In this document: positions 29,557 through 60,380 of the stretch, one piece after another | How positions within the stretch are numbered: position 1 is the stretch's first letter | Layout of the letters: each line of letters opens with the position of its first letter | Assembly: GCA_964607415.1 (NCBI GenBank) | Contig: CAZSKK010000003.1 | Location: forward strand, 3,693 to 67,692 | DNA length: 64,000 bases | Direction of reading: 5' to 3' | Source: an uncultured Candidatus Saccharibacteria bacterium | Lineage (GTDB): Bacteria; Patescibacteriota; Dojkabacteria; J137 | Notes under the pieces: generated by a model | What the model was told of the DNA's origin: nothing | The model's database searches: none | Seen by the model: only the letters and a program-made list of their open reading frames with translations | Translations under genes and position numbers: made by a program

Positions 29557-29910
29557 TTAGGTTTTCATTTTGCTTATAAATTTTGAAAGCATTTTTAGGA
29601 TCTCTGTTATTTTATCATGTAATTGTGTGTATTGTTCCTGATTTATAAACTCCAAATCTTTAGCAAGTTCAATCAGGCAATCTGTCTCACTAGCCGAACC
29701 CATAGCGATTTGTAAAAAACGATTAAAATCTTTGTCTGAACCTCGACAGCACCCTTCCGCAATGTTTGCTTCAATTGAAATAGTTGCTCGTGTTAGTTGT
29801 GAAGTTAATATGTATTGTTGAGATCTTGGGAATTGCTCAACAACCTTGAATATTTCTTTCGTTAAATCGTGAGATTTATACCAAACTTGTAAATTTCTAA
29901 AATTCTTCAT
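29557..29910 (-). CDS. Four-helix-bundle protein (TIGR02436 family, formerly called the 23S rRNA intervening-sequence protein)
   Basis: The N-terminal signature is FRNLQVWYKSHDLTKEIFKVVEQFPRSQQYILTSQLTRATISIEANIAEG. The length is 117 aa. Confidence 0.8.
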   Translation of the reverse strand: MKNFRNLQVWYKSHDLTKEIFKVVEQFPRSQQYILTSQLTRATISIEANIAEGCCRGSDKDFNRFLQIAMGSASETDCLIELAKDLEFINQEQYTQLHDKITEILKMLSKFISKMKT

Positions 29911-35532: not shown

Positions 35533-35582
35533 ACTATCAGCTATCAGCTATCACAGCTATCAGCTATCACAGCTATCAGCTA
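35533..35582. repeat. Tandem heptamer microsatellite (AGCTATC / AGCTATCAC)n immediately upstream of the pcm start
   Basis: The sequence is cagctatcagctatcacagctatcagctatcacagctatcagc. Related GCTATCAGCTAT-type tracts lie at 29519-29548, 29925-29955, 42505-42552 and 55375-55400, all in 5' regions. Confidence 0.7.
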
Positions 35583-35747
35583 AAATCATTCTAAAGCTAA
35601 TCGCAGCACTCAGCAACCCCGAGACAGCATATTATGCTGTCGAGTGAAGCTACATATATTTTGACGCTACACTCAAATGCACAATGTGCGTTTTAGGAGA
35701 AGGCGCGTAGCACCTAGGTGGGTTATTCGTGCTAAAATTACTTTTGT

Positions 35748-36647
35748 ATGTCAAAGATTTCACTTCCCAAAAACTATATGGGCTTCGTTTACCAAATAAT
35801 ACGCCCTACAGGCCTTTTAGATCCTATTGTGGAGATTAGGCCAACAATGCCAGAAAACCTAGATAAATTACAGGCTGAACTTAGAAAAAACGGCTACGAA
35901 GACATGCCAGCATATAAGGCAACAAGTTGGATAAATCCTCAAATTCCCAATCTTATAATTGAAATCGAAGCAAATATCAAAAAAGGCGAAAGAGTTTTGG
36001 TTACTACCCTAACTAAAAGAATGGCGGAAGAACTTTCGGATTATCTTTCAGAACGGCATATTTCTAGTAAATACATCCATTCGGACATAGATACAATTGA
36101 ACGTGTTGAAATCTTAAGAGATTTAAGAAAAGGTCTTTATGATGTTGTAGTAGGAATTAATCTTTTAAGAGAAGGATTAGATTTGCCCGAAGTGTCCTTA
36201 ATTGCAATTTTGGATGCAGACAAAGAAGGTTTTTTAAGATCCAGTACTAGTTTAATTCAAACTATCGGAAGAGCAGCAAGGCACGTAAACGGAAGAGTTA
36301 TTATGTATGCTGATAAAGTGACAGATTCAATGAAATTTGCAATTGATGAAACCAGAAGAAGAAGAGCGGTTCAGGAGAAATACAATACCGATCATGGTAT
36401 TAATCCTAAATCTATTATCAAAGAAATTAAAGATCAGCTTGAAAGGACTAAGAAAGAAGAGCACGAAGAAGAAGAGGTTAAAAACTGGCACAAAAAAGCA
36501 GAAAGTTTTAAGGCTATGACTAAAAAAGATCAGAAAAAATTTATTAAAGAATTAAAATTTGAAATGCAGATTTTGGCGGATTTGATGGAATTTGAAAAAG
36601 CTGCTGAAATTAGAGATATTATTGTGGAGCTGGAAGGGAAGGGTTAG
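35748..36647 (+). pseudogene. uvrB: uvrB C-terminal fragment (helicase domain 2 plus UVR domain only; about 400 N-terminal residues missing)
   Basis: It aligns colinearly with E. coli UvrB from RPTGLLDP onward. The matching motifs are [63 protein letters not shown] and QTIGRAARH, plus the C-terminal UVR coiled coil. The upstream 240 bp are repeat-filled and non-coding. Confidence 0.7.
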
Positions 36648-43273: not shown

Positions 43274-43411
43274 ATAAGACAAAGGTTGTAAAGATAGATT
43301 ATGTTTCCTCTCCCTTTGGGAGAGGATTAAGGTGAGGGGTTCGAAAAAAGCACATTGTGCATTTGAGTGCAGCTAAAATAGCTCCATTCGACTGCATAAT
43401 ATGCAATCTCA

Positions 43412-43444
43412 GGTGTTGTGGCCAAGTGGTAAGGCGAGAGTCTG
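43412..43444 (+). other. tRNA 5'-half-like fragment (acceptor 5' strand, D-arm and anticodon-stem 5' strand). It matches tRNA-Cys at 31 of 33 positions.
   Basis: The sequence GGTGTTGTGGCCAAGTGGTAAGGCGAGAGTCTG compares with GGTGACGTGGCCAAGTGGTAAGGCGAGAGTCTG of the intact gene. It ends after the first anticodon nucleotide. Confidence 0.6.
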
Positions 43445-43514
43445 ACCCGAAAATCATGTTAAGCTTGCGAAACATATGATTTTCGTGGATCCCAAACTTT
43501 ATGAATTACAAAAA

Positions 43515-43585
43515 GGTGACGTGGCCAAGTGGTAAGGCGAGAGTCTGCAAAACTCTTACTCGCGGGTTCGATTCCCGCCGTCACC
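43515..43585 (+). tRNA. tRNA-Cys (anticodon GCA)
   Basis: A 71-nt cloverleaf is present, with acceptor GGTGACG/CGTCACC and anticodon stem AGAGT/ACTCT around loop CTGCAAA. The T-arm is GCGGG-TTCGATT-CCCGC. No CCA is encoded. It is flanked by the perfect 14-bp inverted repeat ATGAATTACAAAAA / TTTTTGTAATTCAT. Confidence 0.85.
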
Positions 43586-43674
43586 TTTTTGTAATTCATA
43601 TTTCTTTGTGGGGACAAAACTATTATCATACATACAGAATAATTTTCATTCTCAACATGACATTTAGTCATGTT

Positions 43675-43703
43675 TCGGGGTTCGATTCCCGCCAACACCT
43701 TAT
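43675..43703 (+). other. tRNA 3'-half-like fragment (T-arm and acceptor 3' strand). Its acceptor CAACACC is complementary to the 5' fragment GGTGTTG.
   Basis: The sequence is CGGGGTTCGATTCCCGCCAACACC. It is preceded by the hairpin CATGACATTTAGTCATG. Confidence 0.55.
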
Positions 43704-43835
43704 AGGTTTTTGGTTTAGCTCACTCGACAACATAATATGTTGTCTCAGGTGCAACTCCCACCGTGTCCTATTACTGCAAAACAGCTTTTTTTATATATTC
43801 GACTGCATAATATGCAGTCTCAACTCTCAGCATTC

Positions 43836-44960
43836 TCATTGCAGTTCAAACTCAAAACTCTTAAAGATCTCCCCATTAATTTGTATTTCAAGTTTGTGCG
43901 TTCCAGGATACAAAGTTCGTGTAGTCATAAACTGTTTTAGCATATGTTTCTTTTGAATTGTTGCAGTTTCACCTTCGTTAAGATTTAAAGCTTTAATTTT
44001 AAAAACCTTTTTGTTATTTAGCTTCCCAGTCTTATTCTGAAAGTAGAGTATATAGTCAACTACTAAATTAACTTCTGATTTAGCATAGATATCAAAGCTA
44101 AACTGCAAGTACGAATTCATTTTAACTTTGTTTGTTGCCGTAAAATTTTGAATTGCTATATCCGGTTTGTGGCTAAAACCCAGCAATTCCATTGCCCCCA
44201 AATCGCCTTGTTTTATAAGCGTTCTTAAAGAATGTTTTATAATGTAATCCATCTCTTTAGGATCTTGCTTTTTAGAATCCCTCCACTTAATCAAAGTTTT
44301 AATTACCAACTCTGGATCAACCTTGGAAATATCGTTCATGTGATTTGCCACCGAGCGTGTTACAAATCTAGCCGAATCGGAGAACAAATTATCTAAAATT
44401 GTAATTGGAGTAGAGTGGCTCATATTAATTTTTTGAGCCCAGGGAAGCTTAGGTCTTGTTCCTTCACTACAAAGCCTCCTTACGTGGTAGTTTGAATCTT
44501 TGCTCCATATCAAAAGTGTTTCTAAAGTCTCCTTTGGATATTTATTAATGAAATACCTGATTGCATCTTCAACCGAAAAACGCATTGTAATTTCCCTTAG
44601 GACATTTAACGACAAAGTTAGATTGTTCCTATCAAGCCCATATTTAGCTACAAACTCCGCATATGGTGCATAAATAAAATCTCCAAAGTCGTTATCAGTT
44701 AAACTGGGATCATTTGGCTCCGGAAGTGCCTTAAGTATAACTGCAACTGCATCACTATAATTGTTTGGCAAATATTTCTTAAGATTTTCTGCAATCCACG
44801 AAATTCTGGCTTTTAACTCAAGCTCTGGGAATTTTATCATCACCTCATCTATAAAACTTTCTTCGGCAAATTCCGGATAAACGTTTTTTACTTCACTAGC
44901 CAGTTGGCTAACTTTATTTTTATTAAAAAGAAAATCTTTTAAAGAAAATTTTTCAGCCAT
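43836..44960 (-). CDS. DNA alkylation repair (AlkD/AlkC-like HEAT-repeat glycosylase) family protein with an extra C-terminal domain
   Basis: It has an all-helical repeat architecture. The SNYHVRRLCSEGTRPKLPWAQ block resembles the DNA_alkylation family. Confidence is moderate. Confidence 0.5.
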   Translation of the reverse strand: MAEKFSLKDFLFNKNKVSQLASEVKNVYPEFAEESFIDEVMIKFPELELKARISWIAENLKKYLPNNYSDAVAVILKALPEPNDPSLTDNDFGDFIYAPYAEFVAKYGLDRNNLTLSLNVLREITMRFSVEDAIRYFINKYPKETLETLLIWSKDSNYHVRRLCSEGTRPKLPWAQKINMSHSTPITILDNLFSDSARFVTRSVANHMNDISKVDPELVIKTLIKWRDSKKQDPKEMDYIIKHSLRTLIKQGDLGAMELLGFSHKPDIAIQNFTATNKVKMNSYLQFSFDIYAKSEVNLVVDYILYFQNKTGKLNNKKVFKIKALNLNEGETATIQKKHMLKQFMTTRTLYPGTHKLEIQINGEIFKSFEFELQ

Positions 44961-44974
44961 AAGTTTTTAAATAT

Positions 44975-45002
44975 GAAGCCGCGACTTCGAAGTCGCGGCT
45001 TC
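44975..45002 (-). terminator. GC-rich hairpin terminator after the 524-aa acidic protein gene (GAAGCCGCGACTTCGAAGTCGCGGCTTC)
   Basis: The 11-bp stem is identical in sequence to the stem at 28335-28356. It is followed by T/A-rich sequence on the minus strand. Confidence 0.5.
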
Positions 45003-45046
45003 ATAAAATGTTCTACAAAATAAAGCCTGAATACAATAATTTAAGC

Positions 45047-46621
45047 TTACAACGACCCATCGTCTTCATAATAGTCTTCCCAGTTGTAGTCTTCCATATA
45101 TTCATCAAAATTGTAATCCGAATCATCCATGTAATCCTCCCAATTAAAATCGTCCGTAGAATTGTCATCCAAACCATAATCTCCCATATCTAAAAAACTG
45201 TATGGATCAATTTGGTTTAACTGTTCAGTTAAATCCACATCAAACTCAGGCGCTACTACTTCTTTGTCCGAATCATTACTTAAAATAAGATAATTAAATT
45301 TTAAGTTTATCAATGAATCTCCAAAGCTAAGCCCTGGATACGCTCCGTCTAGACTTCCGGAATTAAATACCAGATCAACCCCAGCGCCACTTAATTTAGA
45401 ATCATTTACACACATATTTACACTAACAGCAATTTGGCTGTTATCAATCTCATCTCTGAGTTGATCCATAGATTCTTCAATTGACTGTCTTGCTTCTTCT
45501 GGAGTTTCAGGTCCATCATAAGCCTCATCATTTGTTACAATATCAGAAATTTCAACAGCTGCAGTTTCAAGTTGATCAATCATTCCTTTAAAATCTACCT
45601 CACTTGAATCACAAGTTGAATCAGAGTCATCCCTTATTGGATCAAAACTTTCAGTGTTTCCAAAGATTGTAAAATCTTCCATTGTTTTAATTAAAACATC
45701 CTTTACCGGATTTCCAATTCGCTGAATTAAAGCTTCGTCTTCATCGGAAAGATCAGCGAATGTTTCGTCCAAAGAGTTAGTGTATTCTTCTAATAAATCT
45801 TCAGTTGAAAAAGAAGCTCCTGATACACTCATTTCTTCAGATTTTAAAGTACTAATAAGTTCAGACATATATTCAGTTAAATCAACTTTGAATACTTTAT
45901 CTTCAACCAAAGCCGCACCTAAAGCTGAATCACTATCTGTTGATTCAGGCATTACTAAGTTATCAAAGCTTATGTATACAACTTCATCAGTATAAGTTAG
46001 ATCAAAGTTCCCGTTAAACTCACCAGTTGAAGGTTCTGAAAAATTAAAGCTTCCTTTAATATTAATTGCAGGAATAGATCTTAATATTTCAGCCTCACTC
46101 ATATCGATAAAAGGATTTTCACCCTCAGATACTTCATATTTTGAGTAATCAAACTCCGGATAATCTACTAAAATATCTGAGTTTAAGTTTAGGCTCCCGG
46201 AATCTCCCATGTCTAAAGCCATATCAAAAGCAACCTCCAATGTTTTTCCAGATACATCTACATCTTCACTTGAAAAATACCTTAAATTATCACTAATCTC
46301 GCTAGATTTTTCTGAAATTGCATCCAGATCAAAAATCTTTGGAGGATTGTCTTTATCGAAATTTGAGAAATCAAGGTCTTCAAGATATAACTTAACAGAA
46401 TCAGAGAAAGCCATTTCAAGCTCTTCCTGAGGATTATCTGCTTTATAGTCATCGCTTAGTATGTTAATAGATGAGTCTTCAGAGATAAAAAGAAAAAAAG
46501 CAGCTACTGAAGAAATAGCAAAAAGGAACAAAATAGTAAAACAACCTAGCCCTAGCCAAAGAAATTTCTTACTTTTCTTTTTGGTTTTAGTTTCTACTGG
46601 AGCAATTGTTGCATCTGGCAT
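45047..46621 (-). CDS. Membrane-anchored, highly acidic (D/E-rich) extracytoplasmic protein (524 aa)
   Basis: It has an N-terminal TM (FLWLGLGCFTILFLFAISSVAAFFLF). The rest is strongly acidic and low in complexity, with a C-terminal DYNWEDYYEDD repeat. Confidence 0.55.
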   Translation of the reverse strand: MPDATIAPVETKTKKKSKKFLWLGLGCFTILFLFAISSVAAFFLFISEDSSINILSDDYKADNPQEELEMAFSDSVKLYLEDLDFSNFDKDNPPKIFDLDAISEKSSEISDNLRYFSSEDVDVSGKTLEVAFDMALDMGDSGSLNLNSDILVDYPEFDYSKYEVSEGENPFIDMSEAEILRSIPAINIKGSFNFSEPSTGEFNGNFDLTYTDEVVYISFDNLVMPESTDSDSALGAALVEDKVFKVDLTEYMSELISTLKSEEMSVSGASFSTEDLLEEYTNSLDETFADLSDEDEALIQRIGNPVKDVLIKTMEDFTIFGNTESFDPIRDDSDSTCDSSEVDFKGMIDQLETAAVEISDIVTNDEAYDGPETPEEARQSIEESMDQLRDEIDNSQIAVSVNMCVNDSKLSGAGVDLVFNSGSLDGAYPGLSFGDSLINLKFNYLILSNDSDKEVVAPEFDVDLTEQLNQIDPYSFLDMGDYGLDDNSTDDFNWEDYMDDSDYNFDEYMEDYNWEDYYEDDGSL

Positions 46622-50818: not shown

Positions 50819-52021
50819 TTACTTGAACTTATTCATCCAATCAGAATAAAACTTCAAATTATGAATTGTAGCAAGTCTTAGTCCACTTGATTCGTTAATT
50901 CGGATTAAATGTCTTAAATAACTTCTAGACACCGTTTTACAACATTCGCAATCACAATTTTCATCTACAGGCTTATCATCAAATTTATATCTTTCAGATC
51001 TTAAATGCAAAACATCGTATTTTAAGTTTTTATAGCCCTTTTGTACGTCGCCTTGTTCTTCTGAAACATATAAATATCCATGCCTTGCATTTCTGGTTGG
51101 CAAAACTGTATCAAATAAATGCCACCCAGTTTCTACACAAAATGCAATATCATCAGGTTGCCCAACGCCCATTGCATATTTGATTTTATCTTTAGGAATC
51201 AAATCCGACACAAATTGCAACATTTCTTTATAGAATTTTCCTTTGTCTTCATCATCTCTCCAGGTTAAACCTGAATTTAAAGGTACTCCACCAAAATTGT
51301 ATAAATCAAAATCTAAATCGATTAATTCTTTTGCGCTTTGTTTTCTAAGTTTAAAATCATCCCCACCTTGAATAACAGCCCCTAATAACGGTCTCAGGTT
51401 ACCCTCTCCTTTGGGACGAGAATGCATATTATGCATTCGGGCTGTTTTTTTTCCCCCATCACTTGACGACCCATGGAGCTCATCATACTTTTTCTTTGCC
51501 CTTTCAGCCCATTTTGTATTTATCCGAACACATTCTTTTCGCTCTTTTAAACTTGAATTCCCAATAATTGGGAAGTCCAGAACAGTCATTATATCCGATC
51601 CTAAATTATGTTGAATAACCATTGAAGATTCTGGAGTTAGTAAACTTGATTTTCCAGTATTAGGATCTATAAAACTACAACCTACTTCTGTTGCGGAATT
51701 CTGGGAGTTTCCACGTTTACTGTTTATTAAAGAAAAGACCTGCCAACCACCACTATCAGTTAATATGGGCCTATCCCAGCCAAAAAATTTATGAATTCCG
51801 CCAAATTTTTTTATAAACTGGCTGCCTATTTTTTGCTCAATGTGAAGTGTAGTGGTTACTATTTGTTCAATACCAGCATTTTTTGCATCCGCAAAGCTTA
51901 CGGTTTTAATTGAGCCATAAGTTGCATCCGGCATAAATGCCGGGAATTTTATCTCGCCGTGATTTGTAACCAATTTATCCATGGTGTAATATAGAGCTAA
52001 TTTACAAATTTCGCAACACAC
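50819..52021 (-). CDS. tgt: Queuine tRNA-ribosyltransferase. It carries an in-frame insertion of about 23 aa derived from repeat elements.
   Basis: The motifs are ILTDSGGWQVFSL and GVGQPDD. The Zn site is CDCECCKTVSRSYLRHL. The insertion ELHGSSSDGGKKTARMHNMHSRPKGEGNLRP has no counterpart in E. coli Tgt and is encoded at about 51395-51480. Confidence 0.9.
   Translation of the reverse strand: MCCEICKLALYYTMDKLVTNHGEIKFPAFMPDATYGSIKTVSFADAKNAGIEQIVTTTLHIEQKIGSQFIKKFGGIHKFFGWDRPILTDSGGWQVFSLINSKRGNSQNSATEVGCSFIDPNTGKSSLLTPESSMVIQHNLGSDIMTVLDFPIIGNSSLKERKECVRINTKWAERAKKKYDELHGSSSDGGKKTARMHNMHSRPKGEGNLRPLLGAVIQGGDDFKLRKQSAKELIDLDFDLYNFGGVPLNSGLTWRDDEDKGKFYKEMLQFVSDLIPKDKIKYAMGVGQPDDIAFCVETGWHLFDTVLPTRNARHGYLYVSEEQGDVQKGYKNLKYDVLHLRSERYKFDDKPVDENCDCECCKTVSRSYLRHLIRINESSGLRLATIHNLKFYSDWMNKFK
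51395..51480. repeat. Family A hairpin (CCCTCTCCTTTGGGACGAG) plus a GCATATTATGC-type hairpin (GAATGCATATTATGCATTC). Both are embedded in frame in the tgt coding sequence.
   Basis: These are the same two hairpin families seen intergenically, for example at 43303-43328 and 58657-58675. The local GC is elevated. Confidence 0.65.
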
Positions 52022-58630: not shown

Positions 58631-58757
58631 TAACCCCTCCTTTAATTCCTCCTGAGAGTGCATATTATGCACTCGAATGAAGCTATAGAGGTTCGGTTTT
58701 AGCTGCACTCAAATGCACAATGTGCATTTTCGGGTGGCTTTAGCCGCTGGGGTTATT
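58631..58757. repeat. Composite family B repeat. It has TAACCCCTCCTTTAATTCCTCC / GCCGCTGGGGTTATTCC ends enclosing a GCATATTATGC-type hairpin and an AAATGCACAATGTGCATTT-TCGGG hairpin.
   Basis: The ends match 60317-60380. The internal hairpins match 43339-43353 and 35675-35693. Confidence 0.65.
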
Positions 58758-60316: not shown

Positions 60317-60380
60317 AACCCCTCCTTTAATTCCTCCCCTTTAATCAAAGGGGAGGTGGCGTTAGCCGGAGGGGTTATTA
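60317..60380. repeat. MITE-like repeat, family B (AACCCCTCCTTTAATTCCTCCCCTTTAATCAAAGGGGAGGTGGCGTTAGCCGGAGGGGTTATTA)
   Basis: It is about 85% identical to 54437-54513. Confidence 0.7.

Follow-up and report, generated by a model that had tools for sequence, protein, structure and literature searches.

The tRNA-Cys locus described here is, in all likelihood, the scar of serial replacement of a tRNA-Cys gene and not a functional composite RNA. It lies within a window of 64,000 nucleotides (the whole stretch of DNA that was analysed) from a Dojkabacteria-like genome of the candidate phyla radiation (CPR). Judging from the sequence, the gene appears to have been replaced at least twice at this position, which would be a hotspot for such exchanges. 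At this one locus, three strains whose flanking genes are ~90% identical have three different tRNA-Cys alleles, together with nested relics of the alleles that were lost. This is direct evidence that, in a reduced CPR genome, a tRNA gene that is essential and single-copy is replaced by horizontally acquired copies, without a recognisable integrase. A bacterial tRNA that is split, or nested and interrupted by an intron, would be a remarkable find; the locus holds no such thing.

An intact tRNA-Cys gene between the pieces of another

The intact tRNA-Cys(GCA) gene, allele A, occupies positions 43515..43586 on the plus strand and is the sole tRNA within the 64 kb. It is called at 43514-43587 by ARAGORN and matched at 43515-43586 by the Rfam tRNA model (RF00005, 68.5 bits), in agreement with the initial annotation, which had placed an intact gene at 43515-43585. 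Its acceptor strands are GGTGACG and CGTCACC, the discriminator is U and CCA is not encoded. An ordinary tRNA-Cys gene of the relative L169 (L169:4003-4074) is identical to allele A at 71 of 72 positions and has flanks unlike those in the window. tRNA-Cys appears to be single-copy in the host, and allele A is predicted to be the only working gene at the locus. No sigma-70-like promoter was found within the spacer upstream of the gene (spacer X, below), nor an intrinsic terminator in the region; allele A is probably transcribed from upstream across the 5′ relic and then released by the normal tRNA processing enzymes.

Self-comparison reveals that the gene is bracketed on the plus strand by an inverted repeat extending the acceptor stem, with a left arm at 43500..43514 (TATGAATTACAAAAA) and a right arm at 43587..43600 (TTTTGTAATTCATA), the latter preceded by the discriminator T at 43586. 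The repeat is perfect, as initially reported, but longer than the 14 bp then given: 22 contiguous pairs join 43500-43521 with 43579-43600, and 15 of these lie outside the acceptor stem. Beyond the arms, the inserted segment comprises spacer X on the left (43445..43499, plus strand, as read from the sequence), which holds an imperfect 12-bp hairpin at 43448-43485, and spacer Y on the right (43601..43655, plus strand), which is unique sequence. Other copies of X and Y are absent from the window, every fetched locus, the JGI metagenomes and IMG/VR.

Immediately upstream of spacer X lies the 5′ relic of a second tRNA-Cys, allele B (43412..43444, plus strand, 33 nt), which covers tRNA positions 1-34, from GGTGTTG to the anticodon base G34. 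Positions 43411-43444 match the inner gene at 43514-43547 in 32 of 34 nts, differing only at acceptor positions 5-6, and nhmmer with a tRNA-Cys profile recovers the relic at E=1.3e-7, so the proposed copy of the 5′ half with a variant acceptor strand is real. The 3′ relic of the same allele (43678..43700, plus strand, 23 nt) covers positions 51-73, running from within the T stem across the T loop to the acceptor strand CAACACC and the discriminator. It matches the inner gene in 22 of 24 nts (43678-43701 against 43564-43587) and is found by nhmmer at E=1.2e-3; the 3′ piece noticed earlier is thus a genuine tRNA fragment, but its homology starts at G51 (43678) and not at 43675. The T-loop part is identical between this relic and the current gene over 16 nts, while the acceptor strands differ and the relic cannot pair with the current 5′ strand. 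The two relics lie 70 nts upstream and 91 nts downstream of the intact gene, with non-coding sequence between.

As the initial annotation had observed, CAACACC is complementary to the variant GGTGTTG and not to the intact gene. The outer 5′ and 3′ strands form 7 of 7 Watson-Crick pairs, whereas the outer 5′ strand with the inner 3′ strand gives one T-T mismatch and one T-G pair, and the inner 5′ strand with the outer 3′ strand gives A-A and C-A mismatches. Sixteen nts (positions 35-50) are absent from the outer molecule, with the loss of C35 and A36 of the anticodon, the 3′ half of its stem, the variable loop and some of the T stem. What is left of the T stem is disrupted, its 5′ strand reading CGGGG in place of GCGGG, and neither ARAGORN nor Rfam calls the outer molecule.

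At least three sequencing runs have given independent assemblies (L082/L089, L083 and L087) that cover the whole structure at 100% identity. The organism occurs in runs such as SRR22443709, SRR8109493 and SRR22077680, and the related lineages L098 and L164 (below) in SRR12072163 and SRR35674854, respectively. An assembly chimera is ruled out by the three independent assemblies that cross the locus. Exact look-ups of the window proteins gave only 100% identical same-strain copies and were used as an assembly check. A spurious 151-aa ORF overlies the locus; its search returned only the same strain and the A-type gene of L169.

Three alleles and their relics in related strains

The sister strain L098, in which the neighbouring 218-aa protein is 96% identical to that of the window, carries allele B as an uninterrupted tRNA-Cys gene with GGTGTTG and CAACACC acceptor strands (L098:1585-1656). 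The 5′ relic of the window (43412-43444) matches this gene at 33 of 33 nts (L098:1585-1617), and the 3′ relic matches at 24 of 24 nts both L098:1634-1657 and a relic in a further strain, L164. Of the explanations offered initially, these matches support the relic of a duplication and insertion event. Since L098 has the gene uninterrupted, the co-variation of the outer fragments was inherited from one former gene. The two compensatory substitutions had been taken as a sign of a selected, paired acceptor stem, an argument that fails because the intact L098 gene has both strands. Hence caution is needed: the compensatory pairing of separated fragments can come from a dead gene and does not imply selection. 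The 3′ relic of allele B is nonetheless identical (24 of 24) in three lineages while the adjoining hairpin is just ~70% identical, which could hint at constraint.

A third allele, C, is represented by a relic that the initial annotation had missed. It was recognised by its match to L164 and lies at 43748..43796 on the plus strand, where GGTGCAACTCCCACCGTGTCC and a discriminator (positions ~52-73) are followed by the downstream flank of allele C. Positions 43748-43796 match the 3′ end and flank of the intact L164 gene (L164:1380-1451, minus strand) at 96-98% over 45-50 nts. The flanking genes of L164 share 85-92% nucleotide identity with those of the window, and the order in this strain is intact allele C, then a palindrome (the counterpart of hp′, below), then the same B 3′ relic; no B 5′ fragment is present in 4.9 kb of L164. 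Alleles C and A differ at 21 of 72 positions and allele C is closest to the gene of a distant relative, which argues for its acquisition from outside the lineage. In the distant relatives L105, L107 and L110, one plain tRNA-Cys stands directly after the same 218-aa gene. The initial annotation had considered that related genomes might show a plain tRNA-Cys here, as L105, L107, L110 and L169 do, and that the fragments might belong to the intergenic repeat family, whereas they are genuine tRNA pieces.

The relics have the properties of pseudogenes. Those of alleles B and C are identical or near-identical to intact genes of sister genomes (L098 and L164, respectively), allele A is a normal gene in the relative L169, and the outer relic, with parts missing, is unable to encode a functional tRNA. 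From these relationships, we infer the following order of events. Allele B would have been the resident gene, located directly after the upstream repeat module. A complete allele A tRNA-Cys would then have arrived within allele B on a segment of ~230 bp (43445-43677), deleting positions 35-50 and leaving positions 1-34 upstream and 51-73 downstream. The 3′ end of allele C and its flank, farther downstream, would have been left by an earlier replacement. An insert that destroys a single-copy tRNA-Cys gene survives only if it brings a working copy, which would explain the nesting. The relic order differs between strains, with B before C in the window and C before B in L164, so that no simple linear history fits. 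In addition, the junction between hp′ and B positions 51-73 is common to L164; the 3′ relic may therefore predate the insertion of allele A, and the B fragments may stem from more than one event. The exchanges could have occurred by illegitimate or microhomology-mediated recombination with DNA from related strains, possibly promoted by the palindromes at the junctions. It also counts against serial replacement that no donor of the exact X-A-Y segment was found and that replacement by itself does not account for the 15 perfect pairs by which the acceptor stem is lengthened.

Alternative readings of the locus

The outer fragments could instead yield a functional RNA, either a tRNA interrupted after position 34 by a 230-nt insert or one encoded in two halves that are held together by its acceptor pairs, as the initial annotation had also suggested. 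The 7/7 acceptor pairs, a minimum-free-energy fold that pairs outer 5′ with outer 3′, and a break falling after G34 are in keeping with this idea. In bacterial tRNA-Leu(UAA), the group I intron classically interrupts the gene at this point. Moreover, ARAGORN accepts some spliced constructs, for example 43444 joined to 43644, a 92-nt “tRNA-Asn(GUU)” with a long variable arm. However, among 1316 arbitrary splice constructs, ARAGORN called 147, with 14 amino-acid identities; in 60 calls no anticodon could be assigned, and tRNA-Cys accounted for just 2 of the 147. Since arbitrary constructs are so often accepted and their identities are scattered, these calls carry no weight; lenient tRNA finders that accept arbitrary “spliced” constructs call for caution. 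With U37 and C38, the best construct would amount to a class II tRNA-Asn, a type not known from bacteria, and the proposed variable arm, earlier described as a variable-arm-like hairpin, is a degenerate copy of the intergenic repeat-family palindrome whose L164 counterpart is a clean family member. Besides the 16 nts missing from the tRNA body, only 3 good pairs are retained in the T stem. The cmscan search of 43300-43900 against all Rfam at E<=10 returned the inner tRNA and chance-level matches only; no model of a group I or group II intron, or of any other RNA, matched. L098 carries the same gene uninterrupted, and the difference between the two is not that of a precise intron, as 16 nts of exon are also lost in the window. 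The halves also fail to co-occur: in L164 the 3′ piece stands alone, and L098 has a 15-nt 5′ piece next to an intact gene. The locus resembles group I introns in the anticodon loop of bacterial tRNAs (cyanobacterial tRNA-Leu(UAA), tRNA-fMet; RF00028) by its break after position 34 and intervening sequence of more than 200 nts, but has no intron core, an incomplete 3′ exon, an “intron” that holds a complete tRNA gene and an uninterrupted counterpart in the sister strain. Similarly, pieces set apart in the DNA with complementary acceptor strands recall the tRNA halves of Nanoarchaeum equitans and the permuted tRNAs of Cyanidioschyzon merolae. Such systems encode every tRNA nucleotide and use bulge-helix-bulge motifs with an archaeal/eukaryotic splicing endonuclease. 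Here 16 nts are absent, the host is bacterial with no splicing endonuclease seen among the ORFs of the window, and relatives do not retain the two pieces as a pair. The intron and split or permuted readings are consequently unsupported, and the probability that the outer fragments act as an RNA is negligible.

Mobile elements offer a different account of the fragments. These might be attachment-site scars of integrase-driven islands or prophages at tRNA-Cys that have since been lost, leaving a remnant of two cargo genes. The 3′ fragments begin in the T arm (positions 51-52), and a tRNA-Cys fragment in L101 (positions 35-73) starts at the anticodon loop; both are classical sublocations for tRNA-targeting tyrosine integrases (Islander database, PMC4383910; PMC9897764). 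Variable genes also follow the tRNA, including a patchily distributed AlkC-like gene. As in tDNA integration of the Islander type (PMC4383910, PMC9897764), incoming DNA hits a tRNA gene and restores a working copy while truncated old copies remain, with variable genes after the tRNA and breakpoints in the anticodon loop or T arm. In contrast to that type (PMC4383910, PMC9897764), the insert here is ~230 bp without an integrase, brings in an entire gene, acceptor stem included, and not only the part past the crossover, and keeps both 5′ and 3′ relics at 70 and 91 nts from the new gene; furthermore, the fragments are not repeats of the acceptor strand of the current gene. The acceptor strand of each fragment is unpairable with the current gene, which indicates that the whole gene was exchanged, and the closeness of the relics to the intact gene leaves no island between, the two variable genes lying past the fragments and not between them and the intact gene. 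Pfam searches of the ORFs of at least 110 aa in the 64 kb detected no integrase, recombinase or transposase domain, and no IMG/VR contig carries the B or C 3′ ends or allele A. Island scars are therefore unlikely; an attP sequence in this scenario would carry GGGTTCGATTCCCGCCAACACC. Alternatively, X, allele A and Y could together form a small self-compensating mobile cassette that prefers the resident tRNA-Cys and keeps the host alive with its own copy. Three lineages independently have a 5′ fragment 60-110 nts upstream of the intact tRNA-Cys (positions 1-34 in the window, 1-15 in L098 and 1-16 in L102), perfect inverted repeats extend the acceptor stem in the window (15 bp) and L102 (~10 bp), and the insert ends are loosely inverted (CCCGAAAATCATG ... 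CATGTTTCGGG). Against this, the window and L098 inserts are unrelated in sequence, X and Y have no second copy in any of the collections searched, no target-site duplication is seen and a transposase is absent, while survivorship bias alone accounts for inserts in a single-copy tRNA gene that carry a tRNA; such a cassette is highly improbable. Turnover of the single tRNA-Cys by a dedicated process, through homing tRNA-Cys cassettes or exchange at the bounding palindromic repeats, is also very unlikely. If this were true, strains could swap the acceptor-stem alleles A, B and C, perhaps in response to toxins or phages that target tRNAs, and the perfectly conserved 3′ relic and 15-bp extension would be functional recombination or processing sites.

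A metagenome scan with a 26-mer common to alleles A and B yielded 51 contigs, all with ordinary tRNA-Cys genes of other organisms and none with a fragment or X/Y flanks; one of these contigs, L141, carries an intact gene of the B type in unrelated surroundings. Nothing relevant was found in IMG/VR with the tRNA core, the allele A 5′ end, the upstream module, the B and C 3′ ends or the palindrome.

Neighbouring genes and a family of palindromic repeats

Downstream of the relics, an AlkC-like glycosylase gene (374 aa) and an ORF of 524 aa without a family match occupy 43836..46621 on the minus strand. The 374-aa protein has a weak Pfam DNA_alkylation match, and its relatives are named AlkC by JGI. 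These two variable genes stand between tRNA-Cys and iPGM in the window lineage only; the AlkC-like gene is missing between tRNA-Cys and iPGM/SpoU in L101, L102 and L169. A scan of genome contigs with the 374-aa protein gave 80 loci from many phyla, all at <=62% identity, a patchy distribution that is useless for synteny. PADLOC, PHROG and NCBIfam searches of the adjacent ORFs gave zero hits.

The initial annotation had noticed three copies of a hairpin repeat flanking the locus (43386-43411, 43722-43747 and 43797-43822), and these indeed belong to a dispersed family with 6 copies and one degenerate copy in the 64 kb, where 0 are expected by chance. Repeat copies define the upstream module (43345..43411, plus strand), which ends in the palindrome hp1 (43390-43408, GACTGCATAATATGCAATC) and a TCTCAGG tail and directly abuts the 5′ relic. 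Two more copies of this module occur in the window, at 58651-58730(-) and 35621-35694(-), and in L098 it directly precedes the 5′ end of the GGTGTTG tRNA-Cys. The degenerate palindrome hp′ (43656..43672, plus strand, CATGACATTTAGTCATG) is the ortholog of a clean family member in L164, AAAATGACATAATATGTCATTTT, located ahead of the same B 3′ relic. The palindrome hp2 (43726..43744, plus strand, GACAACATAATATGTTGTC), with a TCTCA tail, was identified by repeat search and arm co-variation.

Across the family, 98% of the cells in the palindrome arms are paired and both sides have changed in 3 of 9 pairs. The palindromes constitute a previously undescribed, mobile-looking repeat of this lineage, although the window has no cognate transposase and ends or target duplications are not definable from 6 copies. 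Like Rickettsia palindromic elements and miniature palindromic repeats (MITE/REP-like; reviewed in PMC10969869), they form a short dispersed family with co-varying arms, intergenic copies and one in-frame copy in a protein gene. Unlike these elements (PMC10969869), they have a far shorter core (~19-27 nts; ~70 nts in the long form), no definable terminal repeats or target duplications, an unrelated sequence and no matching transposase in the window. The in-frame copy lies within tgt, where the window TGT carries a ~21-aa in-frame insertion with the palindrome that is absent from the TGT of L169 and L101. The last palindrome at the locus found by repeat search, hp3 (43801..43819, plus strand, GACTGCATAATATGCAGTC), adjoins the stop codon of the AlkC-like gene and is 100% conserved in L164 and L165.

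An intact tRNA-Cys between the ends of an older gene

The sole tRNA detected by ARAGORN in the 64 kb is a tRNA-Cys(GCA) at 43514-43587, placed at 43515-43586 by the Rfam tRNA model (68.5 bits), in agreement with the initial annotation. This gene, allele A, is identical at 71/72 positions to the plain tRNA-Cys of the relative L169, which lies between iPGM and SpoU in flanks unrelated to those of the window. The inverted repeat surrounding allele A is perfect, as first described, but longer than the 14 bp then given: it covers 22 nt (43500-43521 / 43579-43600), comprising the acceptor stem and 15 flanking pairs. The extension of the acceptor stem could have arisen by fold-back synthesis on single-stranded DNA, or be a processing stem or a bidirectional terminator. 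An extension of about 10 bp (AAAAGTGACA / TGTCACTTTT), unrelated to that of the window, is found at L102:1855-1950 in another relative.

On the + strand, the locus begins with a repeat module containing the palindrome hp1 (43345-43411), followed by positions 1-34 of an older gene, allele B (43412-43444), spacer X, the left arm of the inverted repeat, allele A, the right arm and spacer Y. Further downstream are a degenerate palindrome, hp' (43656-43672), positions 51-73 of allele B (43678-43700), hp2 (43726-43744), positions 52-73 of a third type, allele C, with its own flank (43748-43796), and hp3 (43801-43819), after which comes an AlkC-like gene. Because spacer X holds no promoter-like site of its own for allele A, the latter is probably transcribed through the 5' relic and then processed normally.

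Both outer pieces reported initially, a 5' half-copy and a T-arm with acceptor strand, were recovered by a repeat finder, as a 34-nt direct repeat (43411-43444 / 43514-43547, 94% identity) differing solely at acceptor positions 5-6 and a 24-nt repeat (43564-43587 / 43678-43701, 92% identity). A tRNA-Cys profile built from seven related genes also matched them (E=1.3e-7 for the 5' piece, E=1.2e-3 for the 3' piece), with no comparable match in the window outside the locus. As had been noticed, the two outer ends pair fully (7/7), and both mispair when combined with the inner gene. The whole structure is contained, at 100% identity, in three independent assemblies made from different sequencing runs, which excludes an assembly chimera.

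The sister strain L098, in which the 218-aa protein encoded just upstream is 96% identical to that of the window (89% for the gene at the nucleotide level), carries an uninterrupted tRNA-Cys, GGTGTTG...CAACACC, at L098:1585-1656, behind the same upstream repeat module. The outer pieces are identical to this gene (33/33 and 24/24), corresponding to positions 1-33 and 50-72 of its 72-nt string. The 16 nts absent from the outer molecule are anticodon C35 and A36, the anticodon-stem 3' strand, the variable loop and the start of the T stem. Comparison with relatives, proposed as a check on an interrupted tRNA, revealed an uninterrupted one. Since the L098 gene matches both pieces, these are the two ends of one formerly intact gene, allele B, which differs from allele A at 5/72 positions. 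The two "compensatory substitutions" taken as signs of a selected stem thus reflect inherited pairing.

Exchange of tRNA-Cys among related lineages

The corresponding locus of L164, reached via its AlkC-like protein (89% identical), has flanking genes 85-92% identical to those of the window at the nucleotide level. Its intact tRNA-Cys is allele C (GGACACG...CGTGTCC), different from A and B, followed by its own flank, a palindrome, the B 3' relic (24/24), the hp3 palindrome and the AlkC-like gene, while nhmmer found no B 5' fragment in the 4.9 kb of L164. In the window, a third relic that had escaped the initial annotation (43748-43796) consists of the allele C 3' end and flank, with 96-98% identity to the L164 sequence across 45-50 nt. 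Allele C differs from allele A at 21/72 positions and is nearest to the tRNA-Cys of a distant relative. These affinities, together with the A-type gene of L169, point to acquisition from outside the lineage.

At least two exchanges of tRNA-Cys between closely related lineages have taken place at this locus, with truncated ends left behind. Of the explanations offered at the outset, the relic of a duplication or insertion event is the right one, borne out by L098 and L164 and extending to a replacement hotspot with three alleles. The window and L164 have the hp'-B[51-73] junction in common, and it may therefore be older than the arrival of allele A. The relics lie in the order B then C in the window, and C then B in L164. 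Short 5' fragments of their own occur 60-110 nt upstream of the intact gene in L098 (positions 1-15) and L102 (positions 1-16), and L101 has a 3' fragment (positions 35-73). Rearrangements have recurred at this locus, and more than three strains would be needed to place the events in order. It can be added that the non-functional 3' relic of allele B (window 43678-43701, L164:1305-1328, L098:1634-1657) is the same at 24/24 positions in the three lineages, against a divergence of about 10% in the flanking genes and an identity of only about 70% in the adjoining hp' hairpin; this could be due to constraint or to chance, the latter with a probability of roughly 8% at 10% divergence.

In the simplest history of the window, a segment of about 230 bp (X-A-Y) would have been inserted into allele B with the loss of 16 nts, by illegitimate or microhomology-mediated recombination of related-strain DNA. 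At hp1, the module tail TCTCAGGTG overlaps the GGTG of the tRNA 5' end; at hp2, it overlaps that of the T stem of allele C. Such overlaps are compatible with microhomology joins or with a repeat that has a target preference. tRNA-Cys appears to be an essential gene present in a single copy; inserts would survive only if they brought a working tRNA-Cys, which could explain the nesting without a targeting mechanism. ORFs of at least 110 aa across the window contain no integrase or transposase domain, neighbouring ORFs match no phage, defence or NCBIfam family, and IMG/VR holds nothing bearing these tRNA ends. A dedicated tRNA-Cys cassette or exchange system, the most novel of the readings, is very improbable.

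The nearest known phenomenon is the displacement of tRNA fragments by integrating islands (PMC4383910; PMC9897764). In contrast to these, the whole gene is replaced here, which makes the acceptor strands incompatible, the old gene has kept its two ends at distances below 100 nt, and the insert is tiny, with no integrase found. In an unrelated metagenome contig (Ga0209777_10029978, L138:303-420), the tRNA-Cys 5' strand GGTGCGG mismatches the 3' strand CGTGACC and a second T-arm fragment lies 8 nt after the gene, which has the appearance of a classical integration scar, in a different organism.

Intron-bearing and split-tRNA readings

The initial annotation also considered an intron after position 34 that holds the tRNA-Cys, and a split or permuted precursor. 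The locus resembles group I tRNA introns in break position only and split tRNAs in complementary ends only; the defining features tested for each are lacking. Although the outer ends pair in the minimum-free-energy fold, they do so because of their common origin. A sensitive Rfam scan of 43300-43900 (E<=10) returned no intron or structured-RNA family besides the inner tRNA, and the outer tRNA is short of its 16 nts. When 14 donor and 94 acceptor positions were combined in silico, ARAGORN called tRNAs in 147 of the 1316 spliced constructs, with 14 amino-acid identities (Cys only 2) and 60 more calls unassigned. Joining 43444 near 43644, as had been suggested, gave not a tRNA-Cys but a 92-nt "tRNA-Asn(GUU)" with U37/C38, three good pairs in the T stem and a long extra arm. 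This arm, formerly seen as variable-arm-like, is hp', to which a clean copy of the family palindrome corresponds in L164. L164 keeps the B 3' piece without its supposed partner, which is incompatible with a functional paired molecule. A functional outer RNA was rejected on the absence of an Rfam intron, the inconsistent splice calls and the L164 arrangement: the sequence observation is real, and its exciting interpretations are unsupported.

Palindromic repeats and gene neighbourhood

The three copies of a 26-nt hairpin repeat described around the locus were confirmed by the repeat finder. Six matches to the consensus GAnnGCATA(A/T)TATGCnnTC are present in the window (0 expected by chance). 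Its arms co-vary, with 98% of cells paired and both sides changed in 3/9 pairs, and neither the covariation score nor the paired-cell fraction was reached in 500 column shuffles (0/500). The family was found in the closest relatives only. One copy (51420-51438), with neighbouring repeat sequence (51395-51465), lies in frame within the tgt ORF (50819-52021, -), encoding queuine tRNA-ribosyltransferase, and adds about 21 residues (DGGKKTARMHNMHSRPKGEGNLR) without counterpart in the TGT of L169 and L101. Its absence from these two relatives indicates that the family inserts, or has inserted, into new sites; such in-frame insertion within a protein gene is reminiscent of Rickettsia palindromic elements.

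hp1 and two further copies belong to a longer module of about 70 nt, GCACATTGTGCATTTGAGTGCAGCTAAAA...TCGAnnGCATAATATGCnnTCTCAGG, at 43345-43413 (+), 58651-58730 (-) and 35621-35694 (-). This module has no Rfam match, is predicted to fold as three small hairpins or one long hairpin, and in all three cases immediately precedes a gene or the tRNA encoded on the same strand. Intergenic regions also contain another short dispersed repeat, GGAGGAATTAAAGGAGGGGTTA, accompanied by related cctctccctttgggagagg motifs, at 58631-58652 and 60317-60342, with similar sequence at 43305-43345; the same GGAGGAATTAAAGGAGGGGTTA-type repeat is directly upstream of tRNA-Cys in L164 (1452-1541). A short tandem array of GCTGATAGCTGTGATA-like units (~35535-35600, -) occupies the intergenic region between a module copy and a PCMT-like gene.

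The window (34% G+C) contains the housekeeping genes for MnmA, SSB, SpoU, iPGM, TGT, LepA, RF1, GltX and ClpB. Homologues of the 218-aa ORF that precedes the tRNA are confined to small uncultured genomes, one of them named Candidatus Dojkabacteria. This complete genome shows the same order (MnmA, UvrB-C, SSB, SpoU, 218-aa gene, tRNA-Cys), and the window is accordingly taken to be part of a Dojkabacteria-like CPR (Patescibacteria) chromosome. The 218-aa gene precedes tRNA-Cys in all relatives fetched. An ORF at 29557-29910 (-) is assigned to the 23S rRNA intervening-sequence protein family (PF05635, 131 bits) and also has a weak bAvd-like match; the window contains no rRNA gene.

Two ORFs at 43836-46621 (-), one for the AlkC-like DNA glycosylase (374 aa) and one of 524 aa that matches no family, occupy the interval from tRNA-Cys to iPGM in this lineage and L164/L165 only. 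Relatives of the glycosylase (50-62% identity) are scattered over Bacteroidota, Planctomycetota, Proteobacteria, Campylobacterota and CPR, a distribution that indicates horizontal spread. Finally, a 299-aa ORF (35748-36647, +) corresponds to the C-terminal half of UvrB only (Helicase_C, UvrB and UVR domains); since L105 and L107 have ORFs of equal size and domain set, this truncated or split form seems to be conserved.
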